Assembly (NCBI GenBank): GCA_016748015.1
Contig: JAAOMT010000303.1
Coordinates: 310,001-374,000, forward strand
Origin: Geosiphon pyriformis uo1
Lineage: Eukaryota; Fungi; Glomeromycota
Direction of reading: 5' to 3'
DNA length: 64,000 nt
Position numbers and translations under genes: made by a program. Below the pieces are notes generated by a model. That model did not search any database. It was given only the letters and a program-made list of their open reading frames with translations, and was not told the origin of the DNA. Shown here in pieces: positions 10,128-59,396 of this stretch. How positions within the stretch are numbered: the stretch's first letter is position 1; each line of letters opens with the position of its first letter.

Positions 10128-11504
10128 TTATGTGTTTGGTCCAATGATTATGATTGGTTTCAGATCTTGTAGAATCTCATTTGGTTGGACTAGTATTCTC
10201 TGTACTTCTAATTGTGAAATATTACTGATAGATGGTAACACTATATGGTAATATGGTTTTAGTCGATTACCATGTGCTGCTTTGGCTAAGATTTTGTTGT
10301 CTCATTTTAATTTATAAGCTCTATTTCCAAGAATTTTTTCTATGTGAAATGGTCCATCCCATTTGGAGTCAAATTTTCTACTTCATTGTTTTTCTGCTTT
10401 GGTATGATGTAAAAATATTTTGTCTTCAATCTTGAATTCAACTGGTTTATCTAATAATTGGTTATTGTGTCTTTTTTTTTGTTTTTTTTGTAATTTTTGG
10501 ATGTTATCAGCTGTTTTTTGCTGTTTGTTTTCTAGTGTCTCTATTAAGTCATATGTTTTTCTCAACAATGTTCTTTGAAAATTCTCTTCTGTTATTGGTT
10601 TTGTTGGATATGTCTTGACTTCTATCTCAACTGGTAATGTTGTTGTTTTACCATATACCAATTCAAATAGTGTTGCTTATATAGTGTCTTGCTTTATTGT
10701 CCAATAAGCAAATAATACTGATAGTATAATCAAGTCCCATTTGTCCTGGTTTTCTTGACTGATTTTGGCAATGGTTTCACACAGTGTTCTGTTGAATCTT
10801 TCAACTAACCCATTTGTTTGTGGATGGTATGGTAATGATAATGGTCTTTTTATTCCAAATCTTTGACTTAATTCTGCCAATGTTCTATTCATAAAGTGAG
10901 TTCCTTGATTTGATAATAGCTCTTTTGGACATTTATGTTGACAGATCAAATTTTAATGAATGAATTCAGCAATAGATTTTGCATCTGCTTTTTGAATGGC
11001 TTTTGCTTCTGGCCATTTTGTGAGATAATTTATGGCTACTGCAATATATCTGTTGCCTCTGCTGGTAATTGTTAATGATCTAACTAAGTCAATTCCAATG
11101 TGATTGAATGGTTGTCTTACTTTGATTGGTCTTAATAGTTCACTGGATTTTGTTTCTCCTCTTTTCTGACAAGCATCACAATTTTAAACATATTGGATGA
11201 TGTCTGGATATATTGATGGCCAATAGTATCTTTTCCTGGTTCTTTTTATTGTTGCTTCTTTATGAAAATGTCCTGCTGTTGCATCTGAATGTATGTTGAA
11301 CAATATTGTCTCTTTCTCTGGTTCCATGATTACTTTGGTTGGTTGATTTGAATTCTTTCTGTTTCTCTGATAAAGTATATTTTGGTGGTTAATAAAATAT
11401 TTTGATTGTTGTTTTATGTTGTTTTGTTCCTTTTAAGATAATTTCTCCTTGAACAATTGGATATTTATATAATGTTAGAATTATTGGTATTTTTGTATAT
11501 TTAT
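10128..11504 (-). pseudogene. Integrase of element C in a separate ORF
   Basis: YHPQTNGLVERFNRTL (ORF 10677-10949); WDGPF (GPY/F) tail; start codon decayed to ATA. Confidence 0.85.
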
Positions 11505-11534
11505 CTTTTGTTATATTTTTGGATTGACATGTTT

Positions 11535-14500
11535 TTAGATTTGTCTCATTTGTGACAGTCTGTTAGCATTTCTGTTTTCTTTTTCTTTTTTATAATGCAC
11601 TGTATAATTAAATAATGAAAGTTCTATTTTCTATCTGGCATGATGATCATTTTCAAATTCTTGCTTCTGAATTGAAGTCAATCCTTTGTAATCAGTGTAC
11701 ACATCAAACTTTTGACTCAAGTATTTCTTTTACTTAATAACAGCCCAATAGATGGCTAAGTGTTTCAGTGCTAAAGTTTCATAGTTTTTTTCAGCTGGAC
11801 TTAAGCTTCTACTGGGGTATGCTACTGGATGTTCTCATCCGTCCGGTCTTTTTTAAGATAATACTGCTCTTAATGCTTAACCAAATGCATCAGTTGTAAT
11901 TATAAATGGCTTGCTATGATCTGAATAAATCAGTACTAGAGCTTGAATAAGCTTTCTTCTTAATGTATCAAAAACTTCTTGCTGAATTTCTGTTCATTCA
12001 TATTTGGTGTTCTTTGTTTAGAACTGGTATAGTGATTAAGCTATTTTGAAAAAGTCTTTGATAAAGTGGTGGTAGTATCCAGCAAATCCCAAAAATGCTC
12101 TTAATTCTGTGAGATTATTTGGTACTAGAAAGTTCTTAATAATCTCAATCTTATCTGAATCCGTTTTAATACTATTTTTGCTCACAACATGTTCCAAAAA
12201 CTTGAGTTCTGTTTTTTCAAAGAAGCATTTGTTGGCATTTAGTTTCAATCCTGCTTATCTGAGTTTTTCAAATACTTGTTGGAGATGATGCAGATGATCA
12301 TCAAATATTTTTGAAAACACATTGATGTCATCCAAGTATACAACTACTGATTTTTATAGTAGTCCAGTATAGACAATTTCTATAAGTCTCTAGAAGGTGG
12401 CTGGAGCATTTATCAAGCCAAATGGCATAATCTTGAATTTGAAATTCCTTTTTCATGTTGTAAAAGCTGTTTTCTCCTTATCTTTTGATTTCATGGCTAC
12501 TTGCCAGTAACCACTGTTTAAGTCTAAAGTTAAAAACCATTTCTTTTCTCCAAAAGCATCAAAAAGTTCTTGGATCTTTGGAGTTGGATAGCTGTCTTCT
12601 TTTGTTACTCTATTCAGTTTTTGGTAATCCACACAAAAACGGATTTTTCTATTCTTCTTATGAACTAGTACCACTGATGATAACTATAGATTCATTGATG
12701 GCTAAATTAATCCATTGTTAAGCATCCAATTGATTTCTTGATAAATGATCTCATGGCTAGCTGGTGGTACTCTGTATGCTCTCTGTTTAATTAGCATTGT
12801 ATCTCCAGTCTTGATTTGATGTTGGATGATGTCAGTTCTGCCAAATTCATTTTTACTGGTAAAAATGTTATTGAAGTTGTTGAGTAACATCTTGAGTTGC
12901 ATCTGTTGAAGTGGATCTAAGTTCCCCATGTTTATTTGTTCTAATTGTTTTGGTTAGAGCAAATAACATTCACTTTGTCTGTAAATTGTTTGTAATGTAA
13001 TGTTGACATATTCACAAAGCTGTGGAAAGTCTGAAATAGAGTTTGGTGGTTGGTTTTCTACTTCTGTGCTTAGATATCTGATGATGGTTTTTTCTGGTAT
13101 TTCTACAATATTTCTTGTGTTGTTGTAGATAAGAATTTTGATGTGATTATGGTTCTTGGCTGGTATGTGAAAATTGATGAGTCCAATCTTTCCTGATCCA
13201 CAAATGGTTGGTTCAGCTTCAAAAATCTGCCCTTGATTTTTCACTTTTTTATCTATAGTGTAGATGTATTGGTCATATAATGAAATGGAAATTGATTGAC
13301 AGATTGAGATAATTTCTTCTTTGTCAACAATTTTTTCTTCTGCCATATTAACTGGTACGTCTATTCTACTTGTTGATCTGAATTTTTGTATCCCTCTTGC
13401 TGTTATTCCTAGTACTTCTCTATTTCCTACTAACACTAACTGAGCTACTTTCACCAGAGATAGGAATATTGCCTGTGCTATCTTTTCATTTAGCTCTATA
13501 ATATAGGCCTTTTCCGAATTATTTTGTAGTATTACAATAATATTTTCTATGTATCCTGTGTCAATTATTCCTTCTTTAATGTTGATTCTCTTTTTTGCTA
13601 AACTACTCCAAGATGCTAGTTGAACCATAGTGGTTGTTAGAATTTCCAGTACTATTTTGAGATCAATACATGTGTGTGAATGTGGTTTGAGTTTAATGGC
13701 ATCTTTTTCTGGATATCTTAGATCAAATCCTGCATTAGTATTTTGTATGTGTTTGGGCATGATATTTTCATTATTATTGCTGAACCATTTTAGTTTTTGC
13801 TCCTTAGTGAGGTCAGGGAGCATGATATATTGTTTGGAGTTTGAATCAGAGTTTGAATCTGAGTTAGAATCATTATTGTTATGGCCATATTGAACAGAAC
13901 TGGAACCATTGTTTTCATCATTATTGTTGTCGGAGTTTGAATTGAGATTGAAATTTGATTCTGACTCCAATATACAGCTGCTGATTGGTTCTTCCTCCTC
14001 TGGGATTGTGTAGATCATGTGGATTGGTGGATTGTAAATAAGATCACACTTATTACAATATTAAAAGTTACATGGAATCAAACAGTAGTCACAAAATTGA
14101 GTGTTGATTTCTTCCAAGTGTTGCTTCTGCTCTTCTCTTGTAGTGCTAAGTTCTGATAGTGTTCATGAAACTCTTCTGGGCCTGTCTCTATGTTAAAAAA
14201 AACGTCTGGGTTTGGGATGAAGACAATATTGACTGGTTCTAGTGGATTGTTCTTAATCTCTAAGATTTTGTTAGATGTGGTTCCTTCAATTTTGGTATTG
14301 GCCATATATTAGATCTCATCCTCATCATGTGAATACCCATCCAAGCGATTGATTGCTCAGTACCAGACTGCAGTAATAGGCATTCCATGACTCACCCAGT
14401 CACTGATGAGAATTGTGTATTGGCACAAAGCATTGCATGTTTTTCTTTGCCCAGGAATGTCATTCCACATTCCTTCATTGAGCAACTGTTTACCACAAGT

Positions 14501-25486: not shown

Positions 25487-26349
25487 TATTACTCATAAAA
25501 AAGAAAACAGATATAGCAAACCAATAAGAAAATAGTATTTAGCATGTGAGCACATTGCTCAGCAATGTGGAGCAATGTCAGAAATTATGGCACATTGCTT
25601 AACAATATGGAGCAATGTCAGAAAACATGGCATATTGCTCAGCAATGTGAAGCAATGTTAGAAAATTAGAGCACATCATTCAACAATGTAAGCATTGCTC
25701 AAGAAATCATAGCACATCACTCGAAAATGTGAGCAATCTCATAAAACATCAATTATATATATATAGTGGTAGCATTAGAAATAAAAAAAGCAGAATCTTT
25801 TAGTTAGAAATCTCTCATTCCCAAATATTGAATAAATAAATTATTTACCATCTAAATCCACTTTTTACTATCAACACTCCATGTTGATAGCAATTGATAC
25901 TTAATCATACTGGAACAATAGCTCTTGATTATGGCTATTGACAGATACTAACTTGCGCATTGCCTTGGCTTATTTCTTTATTTTATTTTATTTTTCTTTT
26001 ATTTTTGATTTTGTTATTATTAACTCTATTAAGGATTAATGTGCGGGGTACTGACATCAGGATATAGCACTGGTAAAAGACCTAAGAATAAGGGTAGGAC
26101 ACTCGATTGAGGATAGCTTACCAGGAGAAATACTGGCCATCAAGCTAAGAAAAAAATTGATGAAACTGCAGTTTCAGGAAGTTATAGATAAAACTATTGC
26201 AATTGAATCTCTGTTCATTATACAAAAGAGTCAACCAAAACTTTTAGATAACAATACCTTCAGATATTACTAACCACATTATATATCAATTGAGCACCAA
26301 GTTACAGGTTTGTTATTTAATTTGAGACCCCAAATAATCATCTGTAACA
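25487..26349 (+). repeat. 5' LTR of element E
   Basis: TA(TG)TTACTC...TGTAACA; repeat of 34763-35531 with extra U3 units. Confidence 0.9.
25550..25745 (+). repeat. ~40-bp tandem units with internal palindrome CACATTGC-NNN-GCAATGTG in U3 of E
   Basis: About five imperfect units, directly visible; about 2.5 units in the 3' LTR. Confidence 0.8.
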
Positions 26350-26410
26350 TTTGGTGCTCCCTGTGAGATATAATCCTACAGAAAACCAGCACCAACAACC
26401 CCATCCAAAA

Positions 26411-29400
26411 GTGGCAGAATTAGAAAGCATAGAAGCAAACCATTTAGGATTTGTGAAATCTTTATTTTAGTATTATTGCCAACACTTAGGATTGAACCAT
26501 AATCACATATCAGCAGAATCAGCCTTCAATTTTTATGTCAACGAGAGAATTGCATATTTGTTGAGTACATCAGTAAATATTGAATCAGCAAGAGAAACTT
26601 TTTACAACAAATTAATTCAAAACACCAGCCTATCAACAAATCATAATTTCGCATCTATCATTACTGAGATCAATAAAAAAATCGAATATCACATACAGCA
26701 AAGATACCCAATTACTTATGCAAGTAAAGATAAAGAAAAACTACAAACACCAGCAGTAACACTTCAAAGGATATAATTACCTACATAGAAGAAAACAAAG
26801 ATTGAATTACCAACCAACCCATCATACCATTATACATTCGGAAGTGCCATTAATATAACATCAACAGGCACATCTACAGCAATCATGACATTAGCATTTG
26901 GAAAATTTCCATTTCAAAATAAACAAAGGAAAGAGAATCTATTAGGACCATATGGTGAATATTTTGAAGGATTTAAATCTTGATCGCCAATGCCATCAGA
27001 ATTTTGATCCTCACCACCTCAACCAGATTTCGGAACAGTAAGTCTGTAGGAAATCACTGAATCAAAAGAAGAACAAAAAGAAGAGGAAGAAGAATCTGAA
27101 GAACAAGAAGAAGAGAAAGAAGAATCTGAAGATCAAGAATTTACCTACCAGAATCCGATCATGGAAAACTCAGAAATCAAAACCCCAAACTTTCAAACTC
27201 AGCAAAATCCAACTTTAGAAAATCCAGAAATTGAAACTCTAAATATTCAGACACCGCCAACTCAGGATAATCGAAACCCTGAAACAATCAACCAACAACA
27301 CTTACCTCCAGTAATTGTGATCAATCCACTACCAGCTCCATCAAATGCCAAACAACAACAACAGCCACAACTGCTACCTCAATAAAACCAGCAGCAATCA
27401 CAACAACAATCAATAGCTTATGCTCCAATTGCCAAAATTGAAAAATTTACCAGTGAAAAGGACGACACTCAAGTATGGCTCAATGATATGGAAAAAGCCA
27501 TCACAGTCAATGGATGGAATGACAACAGAGCCCTTTAAGTGATTCCCTATTTTCTACAAGATACTGCTGACTTGTGGTATCAGAGTTTAGCCATTAAACC
27601 TCAAACATTCCAAGAATTCAAAACTGCATTTTTGGGATATTTTAGTAATAATAACAGTATTAATTGCTTAGCCAACACCTTCACCACAATCAAACAAGGA
27701 GAAACTAAAGCAGTTACCACTTACTTGGGACATTTCCACAGAAATTTATGCCAAATCCAAGCAATTCAAGCTGACTATTTTACTGCATCTTAGATTCTAA
27801 ACCAGTTCATCCGTGGACTGTATAGTAATCTTCTCTAGCACATATGTTCAATGCACCCACAAACTCTCCAAAATGCCATTACAAATGCCAGAAATTTTGA
27901 ATTGGCAGAACTCAAAGCAAGCCATGCCCAAGCCATTAATTTAGTAATAAATGGATCATCTGAATTGGATTCCAAATTGAAACAATTCAGTGATTCAATT
28001 AATCAGAAATTGGAAAAATACTTAGCTGACAATTGTGCAATTTATCAACCACCACAATGACACAATAATTCAGGAAACATAAATCATTTCCAAAATCAGA
28101 TGCGTTTATCATCATCTCCAAATTAGCCATGGCAACAAGAGACGCATGTCTGTTATAACTGTGGTAAACAAAACCACATTAGAGCTGATTGCCAATTTTA
28201 TAATAATAATTAATGATTGGGAAATCAATATCGAAACCCCAATTGCCAGTTCCCAACTCCGAGTTACCAATCCAACCCAGCCCCATATCAACCAACTTAC
28301 CTGCCAATGATGCAACAGCCAATATATCAACCACCTATATATCAATTTCCAGTTTATCAACTGCAGCCACCAATAATATATCAACCACCACAGCCACAAA
28401 TAATTTATCAGACATCCATAGTTCAAACACTGCCATCAAACTCAGCTCAAATGACATCAGGAAACCCCAGATCAAAAGTCACCCAAAACTGGAGATCAGC
28501 AATGGTTGTTTATTAACCAATTCCCAGTTCATCCAACCAGCCATCAGGATCATAACAACAAAGTTCAGGAACCAGGTATACTCAAAACCCGAATTCTCAG
28601 AACTATTTAAGTTTTCTGGCTACCTCAGAAGACATCTCACCCAACATTTAGGAACCCAAACAAAAGCAATTACTTACCAATATTCTGCCAGCTATTGTCA
28701 CGGAAGATAAGTCTCTAGCAGCTATATTTCCTTTCGAAATTGAGGAACTTACAGAAACCCCTTTGTTTAGTGGAGCTGCACTTGAGGAAAAACCTATTAT
28801 AGTAATATACACAGATGCCAAAATTGATGATTAGTTTATCAAACTGATCCTAGATAGTGAATCAGCTGGCAGCATCATCACAAGACAGCTCATGGACCAA
28901 TTAGGTCACCGAGTTGATTGAGCTTCCAGTGCAAAAATAATTACCATTGATAGAACCACCAAGACTCCAATTGGTGAAATAGATAACTTGCCTATAGAAA
29001 TCAATAGCATTACCATACCAATCAAGGTATTAGTCATGGAAGCCACTCAATACCAAGCACTGGTGGGTAATGACTGGCTATCCAAAATTAACGTAACACT
29101 CAATTGGAACACCCAAGAGCTCCAGTTTAGCCAGAATAAACAACACACACATGTACCAGCCACATGTGGCCATTTCAAACTCATCACCATGCCATTAGCT
29201 CCACTTATCAAATTCGAAGAAGAAAAAAAGAAACCTACCTGGAAAGCATACCAAGTCTCTTGGGCCAACAAAGACTACAACAAGCTACCACCAATACTTT
29301 TGTGAGACAACAAGAGAAAAGAAAAAGAAAACAAAGAACTTACTTGGAATACTGACCAAAACTGGGAAACTGATAATGACCAAGACAAACCAGCAAACTG

Positions 29401-32400
29401 GAAGTGAAAAGAAATTGATAAGGGAAAGAAAAAGAAGAAAGAAGAAGAAACCAATCTCACCAGCAGCACTTATAGTTCATATGCTTACACTTCATTATTA
29501 CCATTCAATTATTATCAACCAAAATTGGAATGCATTGATTATGGCAAGAAATTATTATCAATGGGTGTATGCTGTGGCAATGACAAGAAATACTCTACAG
29601 CCACAAGATTCTACTGCCACCCATGCATCATAGAATGCTTTGAACAACCAAAACGACAAGGAAAGTGGGATAACCAACTATGTCTCACATGTGGAACTAT
29701 CCTACTTAACAAAGGAATGTGGAATGACATTCCTGGGCGTGGAGAAACGTGTAATGAGACATGCCAGTACACCATACTAATAAACAATTGGATAAGCAAA
29801 GGAACACCAATTGATGATGCTTGAAAATGAGTGTTGTGATAATTGAAAGAATATCCTCACAATGAAGATGAACTATGGAGAATGGCGTATGCGAAAGCAG
29901 AAAGTGTGACAACCAGCAAACTACTAGAGATCAAAAACAACCCTCTATCTCTTCCTGAACCCAAATACATACAAACTTTTGATATTTTTGGCAACATTGA
30001 AGATAACCCAAAAAAGTTTCATAAACATTACCAGTGTTTGGCACCTACTAGAGAAGAACAAGAGCAGCATTTAGAGCAGTTGAACACTCGATTATGTCAA
30101 CATTGCTTAATCTCCTGTGACTTTCAGTATTGTAATGAGTGTGACCTCATTTACAATCCACTACTGCAGATAATCTACACAATTCCAGAAGAAGATGAAC
30201 CAATAAGCAACTACATATCAGAATTGGAATCAATTTTCAATCCCAATTTAAACTCCAACAACAATGACGATAAAAACAATGGTTCTAGCTCTGTTCAATA
30301 TGACAACAAAGATAATAGCAATTTGGACTCAGATCCAAACTCTGAAACATTTATAGTGCTCCTTAACCTCACCAAGGAGCAGAAACTAAAATGGTTCAGT
30401 AACAATAATGAAAGTATCAGGCCAGAGCATGTGCATGATACTAATGTAGAGTTTAATCTGAGATAGCCTGGAAAAGATGCCATAAAATTGGAACTCATTT
30501 GTGCACCTGCATTGATCTCAAAATAGCATTGGAAATTCCAGCAACAACAATAGTTCAGTTAGGATTTAGGAATAGTCTAGCCAAAAAGGGAATCAACATC
30601 AGAAAAGGAATAATTGATGCAAGATACATAGGAAATATCATTGCTATGCTACAAAATGATTTGGAAAAAGCCTATATTATAGAGCCAAATGAAAAGATAG
30701 CACAAGCAATATTCCTACCTCTGGTGAAAATAGTTCAGTTAGTGTCAGTGGGAAAAAGAGAAGAATTAGGGATAACAGCTAAAGGAATACAGAGATTTAG
30801 ATCAATGGGTAAAATAGATATACCAGTTAATATGGCAGAGGAAAAAATTGTTGGCAAAGAAGAAATTATCTCAACTCATCAAACAATTTCTATCCCACCA
30901 TATAACCAGTATGGGTTAGCCATAAAAAGAAAAGTAAAGAATCAGACTTAGTTGTTTGAAGCAGAAGCCACCATTTGTGAATTAGGAGAGATTGGACTCA
31001 CTAATCTCTACATATCAGCCAAAAGCCCCAAAAATATCAAAATTCTCATCTACAATACAACGAGAAATGTTATCAAAATACCAAAAGGAACTATCATTGG
31101 ATATTTAACCACTGAAGTTGAGAATCAACCACCAGACCATATTTCAGATTTTCTACAGCTTTGTGGATATATGGACATTACATCATAAACCATTTATGGA
31201 AAAAGTAAATGTTATCTGCTCCAACCAGAACAATTGGAACAAATAAACATAGGAAATCTAGATCCACTTCAACAAATGCAACTCAAGATGTTACTTAACA
31301 ATTTCAATGACATCTTTGCCAGCAAAAATGAATTTGGCCAAATCAACATTATTCAGCATCAGATTAAGACTGGAGATGCAATGCCAATAAAACAAAAAAC
31401 ATACAGAGTACTACTAGCAAGCCATGAGATCATTCATCAAAAAATTAACCAGATGCTTGATAATGGGCTAATTCAGTTGTCAATAAGTCTATAGTCATTA
31501 TCAGTAGTACTGGTTCATAAGAAAAATGGAAAAATCCATTTTTGTGTAAACTACCAGAAACTGAATAGAGTAACAAAAGGTAATAGCTATCCAACTCCAA
31601 AAATCCAAGAACTATTTGACACTTTTGGAGAAAATAAATGGTTTTCAACACTAAATTTAGATAGTGGTTACTGGCAAGTAGCCATGGATCTAGCTGACAA
31701 AGAAAAAACAGCATTCACCACAAGAGAAAGAAATTTTAAGTTTGAAGTCATGTCATTTGGCTTAATAAATGCCCCAACAACATTCCAATGGCTCATGGAA
31801 ATCATCTATACTGGATTACTATGGAAATCAGTAGTCATATATTTGAATAACACCAATGTGTTCTCAAAAACATTTGATGATCATTTGCATCATCTCTAAC
31901 AAGTGTTTGAAAGATTGAGAAGAGCAGGATTGAAACTAAATGCAACCAAATGTTTCTTTGGAAAAACCAAACTCAAGTTTTTGGGACATATAGTAAGCAA
32001 AGATGGAATCAAAATGGACCCAGACAAGATTGAAGTAGTTAAGAACTTTCTGGTACTAACCAACTTAACAGAACTAAGAACATTTTTAGGTTTCACAGGT
32101 TATTATCACTATTTTATCAAAGATTTCTTAAAACTGGCTCAGCTACTTCACCATCTACAGACCAAGAATGTGAAATATGAATGGACCAAAGCTCAACAAG
32201 AAGCATTTGACACATTAAGAAGAAAACTTATCCAAGCTCTAGTATTAATGTATTCAGACCACAGCAAACCATTCATAATCACCACCGATACATCAAGTCA
32301 AGCATTGAAAGCAGTACTATCACAGAAAGAATCAGATAGAAGAGAACATTCAGTAGCTTATGCCAGTAAAAGCTTAAGCCCAGCTGAAAAGAACTATAGA

Positions 32401-32643
32401 ACTCCATCATTAGAACACTTAGATATCTATTGGGCTGTTATCAAATAAAAGGAATACTTGAGCCAAAAGTTTGAAGTGTACACCAATCACAAAGGATTGA
32501 CTTTAATCCAAAAACAAGAATTTGCAAATGATCGCCATGCCAGATGGAAAATAGAACTTTCATTATTTAATTATACAGTATATTATAAAAAGAGAAAAAA
32601 CAATAGAAATGCTGACAGACTATTACAAATAAGACAAATCTAA
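26411..32643 (+). pseudogene. pol: gag-pol of element E, single reading frame from Gag to RNase H
   Basis: CYNCGKQNHIRADC knuckle at 28151, in frame with protease LILDS(E/G)SAG; Cys-rich ORFs 29525-30466; dUTPase 30499-30951; RT/RH ORFs 31684-32643 ending NADRLLQIRQI*. Confidence 0.9.
30420..30810 (+). pseudogene. dut: dUTPase domain in pol of element E
   Basis: (A)EFNLR, RNSLAKKG, GIIDARYIGNI, EPNEKIAQAIFLP, KGIQRFRSMG. Confidence 0.88.
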
Positions 32644-32673
32644 AAACATTTCAACCCAAAAATATAACAAAAG

Positions 32674-34047
32674 ATGAATACACAAAAATACCAACAACTC
32701 CAGCATTATATAAATAATCAATTGTTCAAGGAGAAATTATCTCAAAAGGAACAAAACAACATAAAACAACAATCAAAATATTTTATCAATTATCAAAATA
32801 TACTCTACCGGAAGAACAGAAGAAATCCAGATCAACCAATCAGAGTAATCACAGAACCAGAGAAAGAGACAATATTATTCAACATGTACTCAGATCTAAC
32901 AGCAGGACATTTTTATAAAGAAGCAACCATAGAAAAAACCAGAAAAAGATATTATTGGCCATCAATATATCCAGACATCATCCAATATGTTTAAAATTGT
33001 GATGCTTGTCAAAGAAGAGGAAAAACAAGACCAAGTAAATCATTAAGACCAATCAAAGCAGGACAACCATTCAATCACATGGGAATTAACTTAGTCAGAC
33101 CATTAACAATCACCAGTAGAGACAACAGATATATTGCAGTAGCTATGGATTATCTTACTAAATGGCCAGAAGCAAAAGCTATTCAAAGAGCAGATGTAGA
33201 ATCTGTTGCCGAATTCATTCATCAAGATTTGATTTGTTGACATGGATGTCCAAAAGAACTATTATCAGATCAAAGAACTTACTTTGTGAACAGAATGTTA
33301 ACAGAATTAAGTCAGAGATTTGAAATAAAAAGACCATTATTGTTATTATATCATCTATAAACAAATAGACTAATCGAAAGGTTTAACAGAACATTGTGTG
33401 AAGCAATTGCCAAGATCAGTCAAAAAAATCAGAATGAATGGGATTTGTTTATACTATCAGTACTATTTGCTTATCAAACAATGAAGCAAGACACTATACA
33501 AGCAACACCATTTGAATTAGTATATGGTAGAACAGCAACATTACCAATCGAAATAGAAGTTAACACTTATCCAACAGAACCAATAACTGAAGACAATTTT
33601 CAGGAAATGTTACTAAGAAAAACATATGACTTAATGGAAACTCTAGAAAACAAGCAACAAAGAGCAGCTGATAACATTCAAAAGTCACAAGAAAAACAAA
33701 AAAAGAGATGACAACCAACTACCAGACAAACCAGTTAAATTCAAGATTGGAAACAAGTACTTCTACATCATACTAAAGTGGAAAAACAATGGAGTGAAAA
33801 ATTTGACCCCAAATGGGATGGACCATTTCACATTGAAGAAATTCTTGGAAATGGAGCTTATAAATTAAGATGGAACAACAAAATCTTAGCCAAAGCAGCA
33901 CATGGTGATCAACTGAAACCATATCACCATACAGTGTCACCATCCATCAATAACATTCCACAATTAAGAGTACAATGAATACTAGTTCAACCAGATGAAA
34001 TTCCACGAGATCTGAAACCAATCATAATCATTGAACCAAACATGTAA
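32674..34047 (+). pseudogene. Integrase of element E in a separate ATG-initiated ORF
   Basis: MNTQKYQQL...; (H)SDLTAGHF...CDAC zinc finger; DYLTKWPEA; ERFNRTL; WDGPFHIEEILGNGAYKL. Confidence 0.88.
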
Positions 34048-34113: not shown

Positions 34114-34749
34114 ATAGAAATACCAAATCATATTCACGCCATAGCTCAACAATTATTCCAGACCTTAAGTCAACAATCTTTAAACATAGAAGTTATTGTT
34201 AACAACCAAACAATTTGCTATCAAAACACCAAAAGAAAGACAAAGAATACACCATATTAGCAGTTATCAAAGAATAATAAAAACTGGTCAGACAACATAA
34301 TAGAAAAAGTAAAAAACACTTTTGGGAAAATACCTATTATGGCACTAACAGAAAAACTTACAAAAGAGAATTGGAAGCAATGGACAGAACAACTTCCAAT
34401 ATTATACTGTTACTACCAGCTAGGTCGAAAGTTGAATATTCAGAAGTTGTATATTGACAAATCCAAGAGAGTATTCAACCAAAACATAATACAGCAAATT
34501 GAAGAATTCATTGGGAAAAAGACAAACTCGACACTACATGTGAGAACAATTTATCAACTGCACAACATATTTCAGAATTATCCAGAAATACTGTTATACT
34601 CTGACATAGAAACCATAACCATTAACCAATGGGAAAAAATGAACAATACACAAGTAAAAGATGTGAAGAACAGAGTTAAACAAACAATACTTGAAAAAGA
34701 AGTATTAGAATTAATTCAAGATGAAGATTTCAATAGAGCTCAATATTAA
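34114..34749 (+). pseudogene. ORF3 of element E (unknown accessory protein)
   Basis: Contains ORF 34339-34749; in frame with upstream (M)EIPNHIHAIAQQLFQ; stop abuts the PPT. Confidence 0.72.
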
Positions 34750-34762
34750 AAGAAAGAGATAA

Positions 34763-35531
34763 TGTTACTCATAAAAAGAAAACAGATAGAGAAAATAGCA
34801 GACCAATAAGAAAATAGTATTTAGCATGTGAGCACATTGCTTGGCAATGTGAAGCAATATTAGAAATCATAGCATATTGCTCAAGAAATCATAGCACATT
34901 ACTCGGAAATGTGAGTGATCTCATAGAACATCAATTATGTATATATAGTGGTAGCATTAGAAGTAGAAAAAGCAGAATCTTTTAGTTAGAAATCTCTCAT
35001 TCCCAAATATTGAATAAATAAATTATTTACCATCCAAATCCACTCTTCACTATCAACACTCCATGTTGATAACAATTAATACTTAATTACACTGAAACAA
35101 TAGCTCTTGATCATGGCTATTGACAGATACTAACTTGTACATTGCCTTGGCTTATTTCTTTATTTTATTTTTATTTTATTTTATTTTTTATTTTGTTATT
35201 ACTAACTCTATTAAGGATTAACATATGGGGTACTGATGTTAGGATATAGCACTGGTAAAAGACCCAAGAATAAGGGTAGGACACTCGATTGAGGATAGCT
35301 TACCAGGAGAAATACTGGCCATCAAGCTGAGAAAGAAATTGATGAAACTGCAGTTTCGAGAAGCTATGGATAAAACTATTGCAATTGAATCTCTGTTCAT
35401 TATACAAAGAACTCAACCAAAACCTTCAGATAACAATACCTTCAGATATTACCAACCACATTATATATCAATTGAGCACCAAGTTATGGGTTTGTTATTT
35501 GATTTGAGACCCCAAATAATCACTTGTAACA
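34763..35531 (+). repeat. 3' LTR of element E
   Basis: TG...CA ends; preceded by PPT AAAAGAAAGAGATAA. Confidence 0.9.
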
Positions 35532-38500: not shown

Positions 38501-40603
38501 GCGACCACTATGATTCAACTAGCATCTTAAAGTAGTTTAGCAAAAAAGGAAATCAACATCAGAGGAAGAATAATTGACACAGAATACATAGGAAATATTA
38601 TTGCAATGCTACAAAATAATTCGGAAAAGGCTTATATCATAGAGCTAAATGAAAAGATAATACAAACAATATTCCTATCTCTGATGAAAGTAGCTTAGTT
38701 AGTGTTAGTAAGAAATAGAGAAGAACTAGAGATAACAGCAAGAGGGATACAGAGATTCAGATCAACAGGTAGAATAGATATACCAATTAATATGGCAGAG
38801 GAAAAAATTGTTGACAAAGGAGAAATTATCTCAATCTATTAATTAATTTCCATTTTATTATATGACTAGTACATATACACTATAGATAAGAAAGTGAAAA
38901 ATCAAGAGCAAATTTTTAAAGCCGAACCAACCATTTGTGGATCAGGAAAAATTGGACTTGTCAATCTCCACATACCAGCCAAGAACCATAATCACATCAA
39001 AATTCTTATCTACAACAACACAGAAAATATTGTAGAAATACCAGAAAGAACTATCATCAGATATCTAAGCACAGAAATAAAAGACCAACCACCAAACTCC
39101 ATTCCAGACTTTCCACAGCTTTGTGGATATGTTAACATCACATCACAAACAATTTACAGATAAAATGAATGTTATTTGCTCCAACCAAAACAATTAGAAC
39201 AAATAAACATGAGAAACTTAGATCCACTTCAACAGATGCAATTCAAGATGTTACTTAACAATTTCAGTAATATCTTTACCAGTAAAAATAAATTTGGCAG
39301 AACTGATATCATCCAACATCAAATCAAGACTGAAGATACAATGCCAATTAAACAGAAAGCATACAGAGTATCACCAGCTAGCCATAAGATTATTCATCAA
39401 GAAATCAATTAAATGCTTGACAATAGTCTAATTCAGCTATCAATGAGTCTATGGTTATCACTAGTGGTACTAGTTCATAAAAAGAATGGAAAAATCCGCT
39501 TTTGTGTGAATTATCAGAAACTGAATGGAGTAACAAAAGAAGACAGCTATCCAACTCCAAAGATCCAAGAACTTTTTGATGCTTTTGGAGGAAAGAAATG
39601 GTTTTCAACTTTAGAGTTAGACAGCAGTTACTGACAAGTAGCCATAAAATCAAAAGATAAGGAAAAAACAACTTTTACAACATGAGAAAGAAATTTCAAA
39701 TTCGAAGTTATGCTATTTGGCTTAATAAATACTCCAGCTACCTTCTAGAAACTTATGGAAATTGTCTATACTAGACTACTATAGAAATCAGTAGTTATAT
39801 ACTTGGATAACATCAATGTGTTCTCAAAAATATTTGATGATCATCTGCATTATCTCCAACAAGTATTTGAAAAATTCAGACAAGTAGAATTGAAACTAAA
39901 TGCCAACAAATACTTCTTTGGAAAAACAGAACTCAAGTTTTTGGAACATGTTGTAAGCAAAAATGGTATCAAAACAGATCCAGATAAGATTGAGATTGTT
40001 AAGAACTTTTCAGTACCAAATAATCTCACAGAATTAAGAGCATTTTTGGGATTTGCTGGATACTACCACCACTTTATCAAAAACTATTCCAAAATAGCTC
40101 AATCACTATACCAGCTCCAAACAAAGAACACCAAATATGAATAGACAGAAACCCAGCAAGAAGCTTTTAATACATTAAAAAGAAAGCTTATTTAAGCTCC
40201 AATACTGATCTATCCAGATCATAGCAAGCCATTCATAATCACAACTGATGCATCTGATCAAGCATTAAGAGCAGTATTATCTCAAAAAAAATCGGACAGA
40301 CAAGAATATCCAATAGCATATGTTAGTAGAAGCTTAAGTCCAGCTGAAAAAAACTATAGAATTTCAGTACTGAAACACTTAGCCATCTATTAAGCTGTTA
40401 TCAAGTGAAAGGAATACTTGAGTCAAAAGTTTGATGTGTACACTGATCACAAAAGATTGACTTCAATTCAGAAGCAAGAATTTGAAAATGATCATCATGC
40501 CAAATAGAAAATATAACTTTCATTATTTAATTATACAGTACATTATAAAAAAAAAATAGAAAATGGAAATGCTGATGGACTGTTACAAATGAGACAAATC
40601 TAA
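35536..40603 (+). pseudogene. pol: gag-pol of element D, 3' part (capsid, knuckle, protease, Cys-rich insert, dUTPase ~38380-38770, RT, RNase H)
   Basis: ORFs 36503-36853, 38021-38530, 39413-39634 and 39803-40144; stop TAA at 40601-40603. Confidence 0.88.
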
Positions 40604-40633
40604 AAACATGTCAACCCAAAAATATAACAAAAG

Positions 40634-42011
40634 ATGAATATACAAAAATACCAACAACTCCAACATTATATAAATATCCAATTGTTCAAGGAGAAATTAT
40701 CTCAAAAAAAAACAAAACAACATAAAACAACAATCAAAATATTTTATCAACCACCAAAATATACTTTCCCAGAGAAACAGAAAGAATTCAGATCAATCAA
40801 TCAGAGTAATCATAGAACCAGAGAAAAAGACAATATTGTTCAACATACACTCAGATCCAACAGCAGGACATTTCCATAAAGAAACAACAATAAAAAGAAC
40901 CAAAAAAAGATACTATTGGCCATCAATGTATCCAAACATCATCCAGTATGTTCAAAATTGTGATGCTTGTCAGATAAAAGGAAGAACAAAATCCAATGAA
41001 TTATTGAGACCAATCAAAGTGGGACAACTATTCAATCACATTGGAATTGACTTAGTTGGACTATTAACAATCACCAGCAGAGGCAACAGATATATTGCAG
41101 TAGCCATAAATTATCTTACAAAATGGCCAGAAGCAAAAGCTATTTAAAGAGCAGATCCAGAATCTGTTGCTGAATTTATTCATCAAGATTTGATCTGTCA
41201 ACATGGATGTCCAAAAGAACTATTATTAGATCAAAGAACTTACTTTGTAAATAGAACATTGACAGAATTAAGTCAAAAATTTGGAATAAAAAGACCATTA
41301 TTATTACCATATCATCCACAAACAAATGGGTTAGTTGAAAGGTTCAACAGAACACTATGTGAAGTTATCACTAAAATCAGCCAAAAAAACCAAGATAAAT
41401 AGGACTTAATTATATTATTGGTATTATTTGTTTATTGAACAATGAAGCAAGACACTACACAAGCAACACCATTTGAATTAGTATATGGTAGAACAGCAAC
41501 ATTACCAGTTGAGATAGAAATCAAGACATATCTAACAGAACCAATAACAGAAGAAAATTTTCAAAAAACATTGTTAAGAAAAACATATAACTTAATGGAG
41601 ACACTAGAAAACAAATGGCGAAAAGCAGCTGATAACATTCAAAAGTCACAAGAGAAACAAAAAAAAAGACACGATAACCAATTATCAGATAAACCAGTTG
41701 AATTTAAGATGAGAGACAAAATACTTTTACATCATACCAAAGCAGAAAAACAATAGAGTAGAAAATTTGATTCCAAATGGAACAGACTATTTCACATAGA
41801 AAAAATTTTTAGAAATAGAGCTTATAAATTAAGATAGGACAACAAAATCTTAGCCAAAGCAGTACATAGAAATCAACTGAAACTATATTACCATATAGTG
41901 TTACCATCTATCAGTAATATTCCACAATTAAGAGTACAGAAAATACTAGTCCAACCAGATGAGATTCCACGAGATCTAGAACCAATTATAATCATTAAAC
42001 CAAACATGTAA
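40634..42011 (+). pseudogene. Integrase of element D in a separate ATG-initiated ORF
   Basis: HSDPTAGHF...CDAC; GIDLVG; YHPQTNGLVERFNRTL. Confidence 0.88.
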
Positions 42012-43562: not shown

Positions 43563-45299
43563 CTAATACATGTTAGCCATAGAGAGAAAAATAAAGAATC
43601 AGGTTCAGATTTTTGAAGCAGAAGCACTACTTTGTGAATCAAAAAAAATTGGATTAGTCAATCTATACATACCAGCCAAGAATCACAGTCACATTAAAAT
43701 TTTTATCTACAATAACACAGGAGACTTCATCGAGATACCAGAAGAAATCATTATTGAATATTTAACTACTGAAATCAAAAACCAACCACTAAATTTTATT
43801 TCAAACTTTTTACAACTGTGTGGATATGTCAACATAATATCACAAACTATTTATAAACAGAATAAATGTTATTTGCTCCAACCAGAACAATTGGAACAAA
43901 TAAACATGAGAAACTTAGATCCACTTCAACATATGCAACTCAAAATATTACTCAACAATTTTACCAACATTTTTGCAAGTGAAAATGAGTTTGGCAGAAC
44001 TGACATAATCCAACACCAGATCAAGATTAAAGATGCAATGCCAATCAAACAAAAAACATACTGAATACTACTAGCCAGCCATGAGATCATTTATCAAGAA
44101 ATCAATTGGATGCTTAACAATGAGCTAATTTAGCCATTAATGAGCCCATAGTTATTATCAGTAGTACTAGTCCAAAAAAAAAATGGAAAAATCCACTTTT
44201 GTGTGGATTACAGAAAACTCAATAGTATAACTTGTGGAGACAGTTATCCAACTCCACAAATTTAAGAATTATTTGATGCTTTCAGAGGAAAGAAATGATT
44301 TTCAATATTAGATTTAAATAGTGGTTACTGGTAAATAGCCATGAATTCAGAAGATAAAGAAAAGATGGCATTCACCACAAGAGAAGGGAATTTTGAATTT
44401 GAAGTAATGCTATTTGGCTTAACTAATGTACTGGCCACATTCCAACAGCTAATAGAAATTGTTTATACTGGACTACTATAAAAATCAGTAGTTATATATC
44501 TAGATAACACCAATGTGTTCTCAAAAACATTTAATAATCACCTCTATTATCTCCAGTAAGTGTTCAAAAGACTAAGAAGAGCAGGATTGAAACTAAATAC
44601 AACCAAGTATTTTTTCAACAAAACAGAACTCAAGTTTTTGAAACATGTTGTAAACAAAGAAGACATTAAAACAAATCCAGATAAAATTAAAGTAGTAAAG
44701 TCTTTTTCAGTACCCACTAACTTAACCAAACTACAAACATTCTTAGGATTTGCAAGGTACTATCATCACTTCATTAAAAATTTTTTAAACTGATTCAATT
44801 ATTGTATCATTTACAAACCAAGAATGTTAAATATGAATAAACTAAAACACAACAAAAAGCTTTCAACACATTAAAAAAAAAGCTCATTCAAGCTTCAGTA
44901 CTGATCTATTCAGATCATAGCAAACCATTTATTATTACTACAAATGCATCAGATTAAACATTGGGAGCAGTACTATTACAAAAAAGACCAAATGGAAGAG
45001 AACATTCAATAGCATATGCCAGCCAAAACTTAATGCCAGCTGAAAAAAAACTATAGAACACCAGCACTTAAATACTTAACAATTTATTGGGCTGTCATGA
45101 AATAGAAAAAGTACTTAAGCCAGAAATTTGAGATGCACACTGATTATAAAAATTGACTTCAATTCAGAAGCAAAAATTTGGAGACAATTGATATACAAAG
45201 TGAAAAATAGCATTTTTACCATATATTTTTACAGTACATTATAAAAAGGGAAAAAAAAATAGAAATGCTAATGGTTTGTTGTGAATGAAACAAATCTGA
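43563..45299 (+). pseudogene. pol: pol of element B, 3' part (RT, RNase H)
   Basis: ORFs 43570-44064 and 44560-44793; FCVDYRKLN, LDLNSGYW, YLDN; stop TGA at 45297-45299. Confidence 0.85.
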
Positions 45300-45361
45300 A
45301 CATTTCAACCCAAAAATATAACAAAATCTAAACAGTTGAAAACAAAAATATATGACAAAAA

Positions 45362-46739
45362 ATGAACACACAAAAATATCAACAATTCTAGCATTATATA
45401 AATATTCAACAGTTCAAAAAAAAATTATCTCAAAAGAAACAAAACAACATAAAACAACAATCAAAATATTTTATCAATCATTAAAATATACTTTATCAGA
45501 AGAACAAAAGAAATCCAAATCAACCAACCAGAGTAATTACCAAATTGAAAAAAGAAACAATACTGTTCAACATATACTCAGATCTAACAGCAGGACATTT
45601 TTACAAAGAAGCAACAATAAAAAAAACCAAAAAAGATACTACTGGTCATTAATGTATCCAGATATCATTCAATATGTTCAAAATTGTGATGCTTGTCAGA
45701 GAAAAGAAGGAACCAGACTCAGTGAACCATTGAGATCAATCAAAGTAGAACAACCATTCAATCACATTGAAATTGATTTAGTTAGATCATTAACCATAAC
45801 CAGCAGAGGCAACAGATACATTACAATAGCCATGGATTATCTCACTAAATCAGAAGCAAAAGCCATTCAAAGAGCAGATGCAAAATCCATTGCTGAATTT
45901 GTTTATTAAGATTTGATCTGTTGACATAAATGTCTAAAAAAGCTATTATCAAACCAAGAAACTTACTTTGTAAACAGAACATTGGCAGAATTAAGTCAAA
46001 GATTTGGAATAAAAAGACTATTATTATTACTATACCATCCACAAACAAATGGATTAGTTGAAAAGTTTAACAGAATATTGTGTAAAGTAATTGCCAAAAT
46101 CAGTTAAGAAAATTAGGACAAATGGAATTTGTTTATACCATCCATATTATTTGCTTATCAAACAATAAAGCAAAACACTACACAAACAACACCATTTAAA
46201 TTAGTATACAGTAGAACAACAATATTACCAGTTGAGATAAAAGTCAAAACATATCTAACAGAACCAATAACAGAAGAAAATTTCTAAAAAACATTGTTAA
46301 GAAGAACATATAACTTAATGGAAACAGTAGAAAACAAATGGCAAAGAACAGCTGATAATATTCAGAGATTACAAAAAAAACAAAAAAAAAGACATGATAA
46401 CCAACTACCAGATAAACCAGTTGAATTCAAAATTAAAGACAAAGTACTTTTATATTGTACCAAAGCGAAAAAACAATGAAGTAGAAAATTTGATCTCAAA
46501 TGAGATAGATCATTTTACATAGAAGAAATTTTAGGAAATGAAGCTTATAAATTAAGATTGAACAACAAAATCTTAACCAAAGCAGCACAGGTGATCAACT
46601 AAAACCATATCACCATATAGTATCATCATCTACCAGTAATATTCCACAATTAAAAGTACAAAGAATACTAATCCAACCAGATAAGATTCCACAAGATCTA
46701 AAACCAATCATTATCATCAATACCAACATGTCAAATTGA
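45362..46739 (+). pseudogene. Integrase of element B in a separate ATG-initiated ORF
   Basis: MNTQKYQQF...; CDAC; DYLTK; YHPQTNGLVEKFN. Confidence 0.85.
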
Positions 46740-55330: not shown

Positions 55331-56646
55331 TTATATCTAATTTTTGCTAATTATTTGAGTTGGTATTACCACAACAGACAACCAATCAGGTCGTTTATAA
55401 TATTTTTTAAGTTATATATCATGAACAAGACAATCATTGAAGATTGTTCTGAATTGATCTTAAAGAATATAAAAACTATTGTTCAAAACTTTGTTGATTA
55501 AAAAGAGTTTTTTTCACTAACTAGAAAATTTATTATCATAAACATTGTTTCTATCTAAACAGTATTTTAATACCAAGTTACCAACACTTAAGGAAAGTGT
55601 TTTATAGGTTTTTTTTTTATAAGCTTTTCTTAGAACTGTTTTATCTTTTTAAAAACAATTATTTGTGCTTTTATCAAAAAGTCAAGAATAATACCAAATT
55701 TTCTTTGCAAAATGTTTTTATAATTTCTTATTGTGATTTTTTTAAAAAATATTATTTCAATGTTAGTTTCTATTGATAATGTTGCTATGTATCTATAGAC
55801 AGATAAAAAGATTTATAATTTGTTATGTTATAATTCACAGTTTTATAAGCAAACAAAGTTGAAGGCAGTACTTTGTCCTATAAGTTTGTTTTTTTACTGG
55901 TTTTGGCTAAGGTTTCATATAGTGTTTTATTGAAATATTCTACTAAGCCATTTGTTTAAAGGTAGTAAAGGGAGGAAAGTTTATAACATATTCTCATTTT
56001 TTTGCAAAGTTCTTTAACCAGTGTATTGAGAAAAGCTTTTCTTCTATCAGATAAAAGTTTTTTAGGACAGCCATGATGACAGATAATATTTTTATAAATA
56101 AAATTGGCTATTGAAACTGCTGTTTGGTCTGAAATGGCTTTTGCTTCTATCCACTTTGTAAAATAGTCAGTAGTTGTGATAATATATCTATTATTATTAG
56201 AAGTTATTGTTAAAGATCTAATAACATCTATGCCAATTCTGTCAAATAGTTGATTAACAAAGATTAAATGAATATTTTTTTTGTGATTAGATTTTTTTTT
56301 TTTTTGGCAGACATTACAGATTTTAATGTACTTAGTAATGTCTTTTTCTAATGTAGGCCAATAATAGCAAATTAAAGTTTTCTGTATTGTTTTTGTTTTT
56401 CCAAAGTGTCTGACTAATAAATTAGTATACATATTGTAGATCACAATTTCTTTTTTTTTAAATCTGATGACTCTTTAGAGATGGTCAAAATCTTTTCTGT
56501 TTTTTTTATATAATTAATTATGGCAAATCAAATAGAAATTTGATTGTTTGTGCAAATGGTTTTTTTGCTGTCAAGTGTATTCTGGTAGGTATTGTTTTTT
56601 ATCCAAAAATTCCATTAAGACAGAGTAGTTGTCCAAATTTATTATT
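55331..56646 (-). pseudogene. Integrase of element F in a separate ORF
   Basis: ORF 55956-56444: CNVC, FDRIGIDVI, DYFTKWIEA, LLSDRR. Confidence 0.85.
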
Positions 56647-56703
56647 ATGTTTGTTTTATGAAGAAGTTACTAATAATTAAGTTGGTTTGGTTAAGAAGTT
56701 GTA

Positions 56704-59396
56704 TTATTACTAGATGATAAGTCTAGAAAGAGTATTGATATTTTGATAATTTGCTTTTTTATAATGTTGAATGTTATAGTCGAATTTATCCAAATGGAAT
56801 ATTCAACAAGTTATTCTTTTGTGTTCCAGCTTTTTTTTATTGCACAGCCAAACCAAGACTTAATAATCTGTTACCACTAAGAATTTCACACCAAAAAAAT
56901 ATTGATTTTAATAACTTGTAGTTCAAACTACTGTTAAGCATTCTTGTTCAATAACTGAATAGTTTTTTTCTGTTGGTGTAAAAGTTCTATTGGTATATAC
57001 TATAGCATGTTTTCTGTTATTTTCATTTTTTTGTGAGAAAACAACACCAAGTCCATAGCCAGATGTATCAGTGGGCAAGATAAAAGGTTGGTTTAGATTA
57101 GATTGTTTAAAAATTGGTTCAGTAACAAGTTTTTTTTTCAGAGTTTTAAAAGCTTTTTGTTAATGAATGTCCTAATGATAATTGACATTTTTTCTGAATA
57201 GCTGATTAAGAAAAAAGACAATTCTGAAAAAATTTTTGATAAATTTGTGATAGTAAAAAACCAAACCAAAGAAAAAGTATAATTTAAGAACATTCATTGG
57301 TTGTTTAATGTTCTGGACTTTTTTAACTTTAGCTAAGTTAGAGAAGATTCCATTTTTTGTAATAAGATGACCAAGAAACTGGGTGGATTGTCATTTAAAA
57401 AAAATTTTGATTAGGTTTATCTTAAGGCCAGCATTTCTAAAAAGATCAAAAATCTTTTGCAAATATTCAAGATATTTATTCCAGATTTTTGAGTATACTA
57501 TTATGCTGTTTAAGTAGACTAGAACAAAGTTTTCTTTTACTGATTTAAACACTTTGTTTATTAGACATTGAAAGATGGGTAGAGCATTGATGAGACTAAA
57601 AGACATTATTGTAAATTCATAAGTGCCATACTTAGTAATAAAGGCAGTTTTCTTTTTGCTTTCTGAATCCATCTCTACTTGCCAAAATCTAGCAATTAAG
57701 TTAATAGTTGAGAAGAAAACAGCACCATTGAATTTGTTTAGCATTGTATCAATTTTAGAGAGTAGATATATGTCTTATAGTAATGATATTTAATTGGTAA
57801 TAGTCAACACAGAAGCATAGGGTTTTATCTTTTTTAAATACCACTACAACTAAAAAAGTTCATTCACTCTTGGTTTTTTATATAAATTCAAGATTTTTCA
57901 TTCGGATTTTTTTTTTTTAATGAACTCATCATTGTGTTAATTGGATTGATAAGGCTTTAAATAGATAAGACAAGTTTCTTTGGTGATAATAGTGTGTTGT
58001 ATCACATGGATTCGTTCAGAGGTATCACTTTCTTTTGAAATAACTGAATTATTTCTAGCCAACAGATTTTTAATGTCTACTTTTTTTTCTTCAGAAAAGA
58101 GTTTTTTTTGTTTTACTACAAGTAATTAGATTTCAGGTGGTTTATTTTCAAAGAACTTCTGTACTTTTTTTATTTCTTCTCTGAGTATCAAACTAATTGG
58201 CTCTTAATCTTTGTAATAGATTAGGCAGGACTTGCATTCATTACTAGGAGAATACAAAAGTTTATCATACTAGCACCTGGCACAAAAACCATGCTACCAA
58301 TAACTGTATTTGGCTTTCTTATTAAGTTTTCTATCAAAAATTTTTCTGAAAATATCATAGTAAGGCCAAAAGATTAGCTTGTTATTTATAATGATTTCTT
58401 TTCTGTCAGCTTTGACATTATCTAGTGGCTTGTTATTGCTGATAAAGATGGTATAAGTAAGTTCAGCAGTTTTCTTTTGCTTTTTTTGTTTTTTTTCTTT
58501 ATCATTCTTATTATTATCTGATTTATTTAATTGTTTTTTTTTTTGGTTTTGCTTGAATACTAAAGAGGTTGTCTAATAATAACACTTAACTACAATGGGC
58601 TTCTCATTACATCTGATGGTTAGCTCATAAAGTTTATAGTTAAGTAATGTTTTGGCTTTCTTAAACCACTCATTGTCAACAATTATGGTGTACTTTTTTG
58701 CTTCAAATACTTTATGTTAGTTTTAATACTGATGCTATTGATGCAAACAAAAACAGCTTTGGCTATGCCCAGACTTTTCTTCTTGTCACCATGTACATTG
58801 GTCATAGATCAAATAAAAGATTCATCAATTTTTCTTCCAATGGTTTTCAGAAAGTGTTTGGCAATTATGCTAACAAATAATCTACTGTTTAGAATTAAGT
58901 CAATAAAATAACCAGTTACTTGGGCTTTGCAAATAAGAGGAGTAATATTGCTGTTGTTAGCAAGTCTAGCTTGATAAGAGCACTTGTTGGTTTTTGGTGT
59001 TTTCTTCTTTGAAATTAATAATTTGCAAAAATTTTTTCTGAACTGTAAATAAGTCATTAATTGGCCAAATGTAATATGTGCTGGAATTTTTATAAAATCT
59101 TTAACAATAAAATAGGGACCAGATTTTTATACTATTTCTGAGGGTTCTAACTTTGGAAGATTTTTAAAAACTTTAGTTTTTGGTGGCTCATTGTTATTAG
59201 CAGTTGATATAAATGCTTTGTTTGGATCCAAAACAAAATCAACTTTGGCTTTCTTCTTTTTTCTTGTTAATTCAGAGGTATTTATTGGTAGTTTATCTAT
59301 ATTATAGTTATTATCAATTAGGTTAAAAGTGAAAAAAAGATTTTCTTCTGGTTGGCTTGCACTTTTATCCTTTGGAGGTGTATTTACTAGTTTAAA
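56704..59396 (-). pseudogene. pol: pol of element F (protease, CxxC insert, RT, RNase H)
   Basis: ORFs 58809-59057 and 57391-57744; ends at TAG TAA TAA (56704-56712). Confidence 0.85.

Follow-up and report, generated by a model that had tools for sequence, protein, structure and literature searches.

Gypsy-type LTR retrotransposons with a separate integrase ORF in Geosiphon pyriformis and soil-metagenome relatives

We describe LTR retrotransposons of the Ty3/gypsy type in which the integrase (IN) does not continue the pol frame: a stop codon closes pol directly after RNase H (RH), a spacer follows, and IN begins afresh at an AUG of its own. The elements come from the genome of Geosiphon pyriformis, a glomeromycotan fungus, and we have little doubt that their split layout is real. 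It reaches beyond the dUTPase-bearing elements in which it was first read, being present likewise in a second LTR family of the same stretch of DNA and in relatives from soil metagenomes. Two further features are new here, namely a hairpin before the IN AUG in one subclade and a small helical third ORF (ORF3) in many of the elements. No description of a separate IN gene was found in the openly accessible full-text literature; nor does one appear in the available portions of PMC11952901, PMC13465315, PMC2774666, PMC5911963, PMC6431247, PMC13524379 and bioRxiv 10.1101/2021.03.30.436303.

The junction between pol and integrase

The 64-kb stretch analysed here (the window) is an AT-rich nest of LTR retrotransposons of G. 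pyriformis, in which element E lies inside D, and D and C lie inside B; LTR elements make up 41% of this genome according to the accessible part of PMC11952901. Like Ty3/gypsy (Metaviridae), the window elements have direct LTRs with TG..CA ends, 4-nt target duplications (at E and D), sites resembling the primer-binding site and the polypurine tract, and the order gag-PR-RT-RH-IN as recognized by Pfam and tblastn. Their RT and IN are of the Ty3/gypsy type (PF17917/PF17919/PF17921), and the best match of the IN profile among sequences of solved structures is the Ty3 Gag-Pol (E 2e-50). By LTRs, domain order and sequence they thus classify as Ty3/gypsy, differing in that IN is a separate ORF followed by an ORF3 that is not env, whereas in the fungal survey of PMC3248453, as far as its available text goes, the Pol polyprotein normally has IN as its final portion.

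Element E lies on the forward strand and starts with a 5' LTR (25487..26349) that ends in TGTAACA and has the target duplication ATGC and an internal TATA box; directly after it comes a primer-binding-site-like sequence starting TGG (26351..26368). The decayed gag, protease and dUTPase region (27400..30951, the start being approximate) is delineated by Pfam, with RVP_2 and dUTPase matched in E and Retrotrans_gag in the aligned region of B. RT and RH (31345..32640) end in NADRLLQIRQI and are followed by the pol stop TAA (32641..32643), a 30-nt spacer (32644..32673) and the separate IN ORF (32674..34047). The latter comprises an N-terminal extension, the HHCC region, the DDE core and a C-terminal GPF/SH3-like part, and is broken in this copy by decay stops and late frameshifts. 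ORF3 (34114..34749) starts about 66 nt after the IN stop, at an ATG that is present in D and B and decayed in E. A purine-rich tract (34746..34762) precedes the 3' LTR (34763..35531), which is 92% identical to the 5' LTR over the aligned parts; LTR pairs across the window are 88-92% identical.

The copies B, C, D and E are dead and have decayed by C>T / G>A changes, 374 of the 388 differences between C and D being transitions. Across the whole window this decay is strong outside CpG too, and resembles repeat-induced mutation, here in a glomeromycotan host. The U3 parts of the LTRs at 23420-23570, 42794-42914, 47505-47635 and 25550-25745 are built of 40-nt tandem repeats; in these repeats E differs from the B/C/D group, and the downstream parts of the LTRs are related.

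At the junction of E, the TAA (32641-43) is followed by a second in-frame TAA (32665-67) and by the ATG at 32674, and the spacer is A-rich (18/30 A, 1 G) and free of AUG. The equivalent junctions lie at 40601..40636 in D (forward; TAA 40601, ATG 40634), 11502..11537 in C (reverse; TAA 11537-35, start decayed to ATA at 11504) and 45297..45364 in B (forward; TGA 45297, ATG 45362). The sequence-only reading, which had first proposed the split, had placed all four junctions at these positions, and re-reading bears it out. It had also given B a stop-to-ATG distance of 65 nt, out of frame, as we confirm; the 32 extra nt of B arise from the spacer, duplicated in tandem with a period of 32, and put IN out of frame with pol. 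Its restriction of the second in-frame spacer stop to C, D and E has to be relaxed, since B has one as well. Likewise, the split does occur in all four dUTPase-family elements, as it held, but is not peculiar to them: a second, unrelated LTR family, with copies at 5007-7564 (forward) and 57774-55797 (reverse), has a pol stop after RH in both copies. In the junction of the first (6236..6316, forward), IN is in another frame and its start has decayed to ATA at 6314; that of the second lies at approximately 56640..56720 (reverse).

Four copies by themselves constitute weak proof of an ancestral stop, because the elements decay by C>T / G>A and a pol codon for Trp, at 32446, has likewise become a stop in every one of them (TAA/TGA/TAA/TAG); this shared decay stop led us to reject the four-copy argument taken alone. 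The junction was also compared with 2,865 genomic contigs of at least 80% identity, all from run X1, with differences listed from 3%; runs X2 and X3 yielded no matching contigs. Six of these differences are T>C and one is T>A, none of them at 32641 or 32665; six more are known by type alone (three C>T and one each of A>G, G>A and C>A), among which an A>G at the stop would leave a stop and one could fall in the ATG. In the same contigs, neighbouring C positions in CAA/CCA contexts are decayed at 8-34%, and the decay stop of E at 32992, a positive control, carries C at 90% of depth (503,109/561,341 units). The pol stop is thus ancestral, as no C reaches 3% at either stop and no CAA or CGA codon underlies them, against 90% C at the control. 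Other genomic copies carry spacer duplications of +31, +32 and +63 nt; with indels of 31 and 32 nt, neither a multiple of three, among these copies and B (+32 nt), the earlier claim of a non-coding spacer stands. That the stops are former CAA/CGA codons, lost to C>T decay in dead copies, is a reading favoured by the heavy decay and by the one decay codon that is a stop in all four; it is vanishingly improbable in view of the genomic contigs and of relatives that are free of decay and split as well.

The split in relatives and its fused counterparts

A search with the IN protein of E, in a length window of 189-604 aa, yielded 120 best homologs, which are mostly of 400-440 aa, the named ones coming from Rhizophagus, R. 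irregularis included. Of these 120, at 39-55% identity, 74 place exactly 78 residues ahead of the second zinc-binding His, which corresponds to the ATG of E. As such a length window is blind to fusions, longer proteins and an unfiltered profile search were added. The longer proteins gave 46 matches, one of which exceeds 33% identity across the full query. The 150 matches listed from the profile search comprise 49 stand-alone proteins, 85 with RT upstream and 16 others, and the top 17 single-domain scores among them belong to stand-alone proteins.

DNA context was obtained for 80 metagenome loci, chosen by IN similarity. Both the RH end and the IN start are present in 36 of them, near-duplicates included; the 44 loci lacking one or the other were left uncounted. 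All 36 are split, so that the layout read from the window recurs in relatives, with 11, 15 and 10 loci falling in the three relative frames. Stop-to-AUG gaps run from -20 to +727 nt with a median of about 61 nt, 29 of the 36 being below 100 nt (for L042, a frameshifted copy, the gap was taken from the last ORF before IN). Nine junctions are overlapping or touching stop-starts, including a UAAUG in L024, and three gaps exceed 350 nt. The IN ORF spans at least 380 codons, or is open to the contig end, in 29 of the 36 split loci. Wherever the match reached residue 1 of the query (55 loci), an ATG stands at that residue, a count favoured by the tendency of tblastn to end on a matching Met.

The dUTPase of the window elements lies between PR and RT, as in the dUTPase-bearing fungal Metaviridae of PMC6431247 and PMC2774666, whose accessible text makes no mention of a split IN. 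Among the matches listed, all 120 homologs of the dUTPase region of C are G. pyriformis proteins, and no dUTPase match was found in the fetched loci, 12 of which have at least 900 nt upstream of RT. Hence, dUTPase, which is not common to the split relatives fetched, appears from these sequences to be a local feature.

The relatives show variation elsewhere in their coding regions too. In L042, gag-PR-RT is in one frame; L016 (3338-4483, 4705 onward) has a pol ORF apart from gag, with the break before PR, and L057 (505-3360, 3394-6705) has separate gag and pol ORFs, with the break between PR and RT. These breaks could reflect mutation or further splitting. A new gag lies 0.4-2 kb after IN or ORF3 in L013, L014, L016, L019, L025, L031, L045, L047 and L083, as expected for tandem elements or assembly-collapsed LTRs.

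A search of viral contigs for IN returned a single distant fused element, and one of genome contigs returned mostly eukaryote-looking contigs in prokaryote assemblies along with IS elements, the fused ones being used as controls. Gypsy-type sequence occurs in several prokaryote assemblies and MAGs (among L082-L101), including Glomeribacter (L084), and is likely contamination from the host or another eukaryote. The distant loci L081, L085-L091 and L093 are fused. On the IN tree, the fused P0228 (912 aa) stands beside a stand-alone IN (SH-aLRT 96), and the fused P0244, P0248, P0255, P0297 and P0303 fall weakly in or near the split group. P0244 (1498 aa) keeps a Met ten residues after RH, where split elements start IN, which possibly represents either the ancestral or a re-fused state. 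On the RT tree, built from gypsy-type rows only and without a copia/BEL outgroup, two label changes are required to account for the split rows, which emerge together with chromovirus-like elements from an unresolved fork; they occupy one side of a branch (SH-aLRT 80) once 12 rows are dropped. Support for monophyly of the split elements is weak, and a single origin would be one possible history.

The existence of these fused relatives, with the Met kept in P0244, bears on whether pol and IN might yet be joined through readthrough, a frameshift or an intron, and one frameshift could indeed cross 12 of the 36 junctions and one readthrough three. No single event of either kind suffices in 21 of the 36 loci or in E, D and B, because the stretch from the pol stop to the IN AUG contains a further in-frame stop; two or more events would be needed there. 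Moreover, no slippery sequence is common to the junctions of the 36 loci, the spacer indels are of 31 and 32 nt, and, downstream of the last RH Asp, 25 of the 28 short RH tails reach the stop without a GT[AG][AT] donor. Three gene models of R. clarus do join RH to IN, namely P0001, which is the one close long match, and two mates in its cluster. They use two different junctions, all without the NADALSR motif, and a fourth member of the cluster ends right after that motif. Given this loss of the final RH motif, the discordant junctions and the fourth member, the introns of the joined models seem to be artefacts of gene calling. An intron that fuses RH with IN, which would have undone the sequence-only reading, is therefore unlikely in the face of the donorless tails and the inconsistent R. 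clarus junctions, and we regard fusion by any of the three routes as very improbable.

Expression of the integrase, the hairpin and ORF3

The context of the IN AUG looks like that of a real start: A is at -3 in 43 of 58 IN starts against 105 of 339 internal ATGs, and a purine at -3 is combined with G at +4 in 46 of 58 against 73 of 339, the G at +4 being also set by residue 2, which is Asp or Glu in 50 of 58. Nine AUGs occur in the 24 spacers of 6-199 nt, where 22.8 are expected; in the three gaps of 365-727 nt the numbers are 7, 8 and 12, as many as expected. Five of the 24 short spacers are without any AG, and thus without a splice acceptor.

By analogy with other systems, we rate it at about even confidence that IN is translated from the full-length RNA by termination-reinitiation as the main route. 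Ribosomes would finish pol at the stop after RH and restart a short way on, at the IN AUG; in one subclade a hairpin of about 38 nt between the two may help the restart, and ORF3 would be a third cistron read in the same manner. The new IN would bind its own RNA or cDNA instead of being carried into the particle on Gag-Pol, either joining the particle through RNA, in the style of foamy-virus Pol, or meeting the cDNA later, in the nucleus. The tight overlaps, one of them UAAUG, and the AUG-poor spacers of 24-100 nt speak for reinitiation and match SART1 and LINE-1: the available text of PMC5972666 describes a UAAUG in SART1, where a downstream RNA structure is required, a 63-nt spacer in LINE-1, and distant reinitiation that depends on Kozak context. 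In those elements, as in many of the ones studied here, a downstream enzyme ORF follows a long ORF after a UAAUG overlap or a spacer of about 60 nt; they differ in being non-LTR and in that their restarted ORF is an RT/endonuclease, rather than a DDE integrase for which reinitiation is inferred. In fungi, victoriviruses and hypoviruses obtain two proteins per RNA by an AUGA or UAAUG restart with a small RNA structure (PMC6631646, in its accessible part); their pseudoknot is upstream of the stop, whereas the hairpin here follows the stop and precedes the AUG, and the gaps are mostly longer. Against reinitiation, two successive restarts for ORF3 would yield little protein, and the three long AUG-rich gaps cannot be accounted for by ribosomes that scan on from the stop.

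The hairpin motif consists of GGUGAAAGC..AAG, a stem, a CANNGUGA loop, the second arm of the stem and GCC; it has a purine bulge of 11 nt, and bulge and loop may form a pseudoknot of 2 bp. Its 3' end is -1 to +36 nt from the IN AUG in loci where both were located. The motif was detected by covariance model in 22 of 93 loci (17 of them related training rows, the other five close to these), always on the sense strand beside the IN AUG and nowhere else in them. Of its 13 pairs, seven vary in both partners, and 96% of cells are paired, a proportion that none of 500 shuffles reached and that compares with 27-47% in slid controls; folded singly, the sequences give unremarkable z-scores (-2.3 to +0.9). 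The covariance model does not find it in the window (best E 0.69), and its absence there and from most loci counts against the proposed reinitiation route. An Rfam 15 scan of 17 hairpin loci at E<=10 gave three weak matches, none on the motif, and one of the window gave nothing; a presumed likeness to ribozymes, xrRNAs and IREs was dropped. The hairpin marks a subclade whose pol extends 200-350 aa beyond RH, a tail in which no convincing Pfam match was found. These tails (L011 4330-5163, L019 3479-4438, L026, L045, L046 and L047, and also L015, L043, L048 and L083) have an acidic stretch and a conserved Cys/His cluster that, from its sequence, may bind zinc. L057 has a different tail, of 588 aa.

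An ORF3 follows IN in 23 of the 33 split-type loci with at least 700 nt downstream (20 of the 23 being training rows) and in none of six fused controls. The ORF3 proteins are of 139-230 aa and predicted to be all helical, with a predicted fold of eight helices (pLDDT 95.6). No Pfam family occurs in more than one of 29 members, no Foldseek match at E<=0.001 was found in PDB or viral models, the best Z in a VIA comparison is 4.9, and Atlas matches are unnamed or low in shared features. The modelled ORF3 thus appears to be without a clear structural match, which does not establish a new fold. A single pairwise match, to the ORF3 of L006 (25% identity over 134 aa, E 9e-11), links the window ORF3 to those of relatives, and a profile of 27 ORF3s gave no match to it. 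Of the three-ORF design of gag-pol, IN and ORF3 put forward in the sequence-only reading, the split of IN holds, but ORF3 is common rather than universal and a single gag-pol frame is not demonstrable in the decayed copies of the window. At the usual place of ORF3, directly after IN, L032 has a 314-aa ORF (1945-2889) with a NUDIX domain (E 1e-10).

A somewhat unlikely but serious alternative to reinitiation accepts the split and has IN, and with it ORF3, made from subgenomic RNAs, arising from an internal promoter or by splicing from a donor in the LTR leader. Such RNAs would cover all gap sizes, the AUG-rich ones of 365-727 nt and the third cistron included, and explain the long gaps and ORF3 better than reinitiation does; the AUG depletion and Kozak context would suit a 5' UTR equally. 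All eight dUTPase-type LTR copies found, and one further LTR, carry TACTAAC with a long pyrimidine tract. In eight LTR copies (at 23802, 25946, 35128, 43154 and 47876 on the forward strand and 18292, 8985 and 3865 on the reverse) the TACTAAC is perfect and the tract has 25-27/30 pyrimidines; the pair resembles a branch point with its splice acceptor within the LTR, and no donor was identified. Foamy-virus Pol offers a parallel, coming from a spliced mRNA according to the available part of PMC3705302. Near the IN AUG itself there is no conserved acceptor, as also seen from the short spacers devoid of AG; a quarter of the junctions are tight stop-start overlaps, typical of translational coupling; and 50 upstream regions share no promoter-like k-mer but the hairpin. 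More doubtful is a third route, independent of pol translation, in which ribosomes enter at the A-rich spacer or the hairpin, or the latter is a site of cleavage or nuclease block in a processed RNA. The covarying hairpin at the AUG and the 18 A among the 30 nt of the E spacer are consistent with it, and there is precedent for A-rich IRESs, but the hairpin is confined to those 22 loci and matches no ribozyme, IRES or xrRNA family of Rfam.

Comparison with known systems and significance

Several known classes were considered and rejected. A chromovirus assignment finds no support in the Pfam scan of the 120 listed stand-alone IN homologs, in which no chromodomain (PF00385) was matched and the INs end shortly after the GPY/F part. 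An errantivirus-like env does not fit an ORF3 of such length, all helical and without a Pfam family common to its members. Ginger/GIN elements are DNA transposons or domesticated genes with a stand-alone gypsy-like IN, and resemble the present elements in that protein; they were set aside because RT-RH lies directly upstream, between LTRs, in the window, and upstream in the 36 loci.

In LTR elements and retroviruses, IN is assumed to enter the particle as part of Pol, and the high copy number of the split lineage means that this link between IN and Pol is not required. The finding raises the questions of how a eukaryotic RNA expresses a second and a third cistron after a very long ORF, and of how IN finds its own cDNA without Gag-Pol. 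Foamy viruses face a comparable need for another packaging route, as their Pol is made apart from Gag, is packaged through signals in the genomic RNA, and is bridged into particles by RNA (PMC3705302, in its accessible text); however, their IN stays in the Pol precursor and is needed for its packaging, whereas here IN alone is separate. In the most far-reaching reading, which we offer as speculative and rather unlikely as a whole, these elements would form an old, widespread and undescribed polycistronic (gag-pol / IN / ORF3) fungal LTR lineage. Its IN would have escaped from the polyprotein and be produced by restarting ribosomes, controlled by small structured RNAs of a new class; it would either be loaded in cis onto the RNA or work on the cDNA as a free transposase does. 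ORF3 would be a helper of novel fold, and the lineage a living intermediate between gypsy and the integrase-only Ginger/GIN elements. The present analysis adds a structured RNA and a small protein family, both new. Moreover, the split explains the numerous stand-alone 'integrase core domain' genes in annotations of arbuscular mycorrhizal genomes, as well as the false intron-joined models among them.
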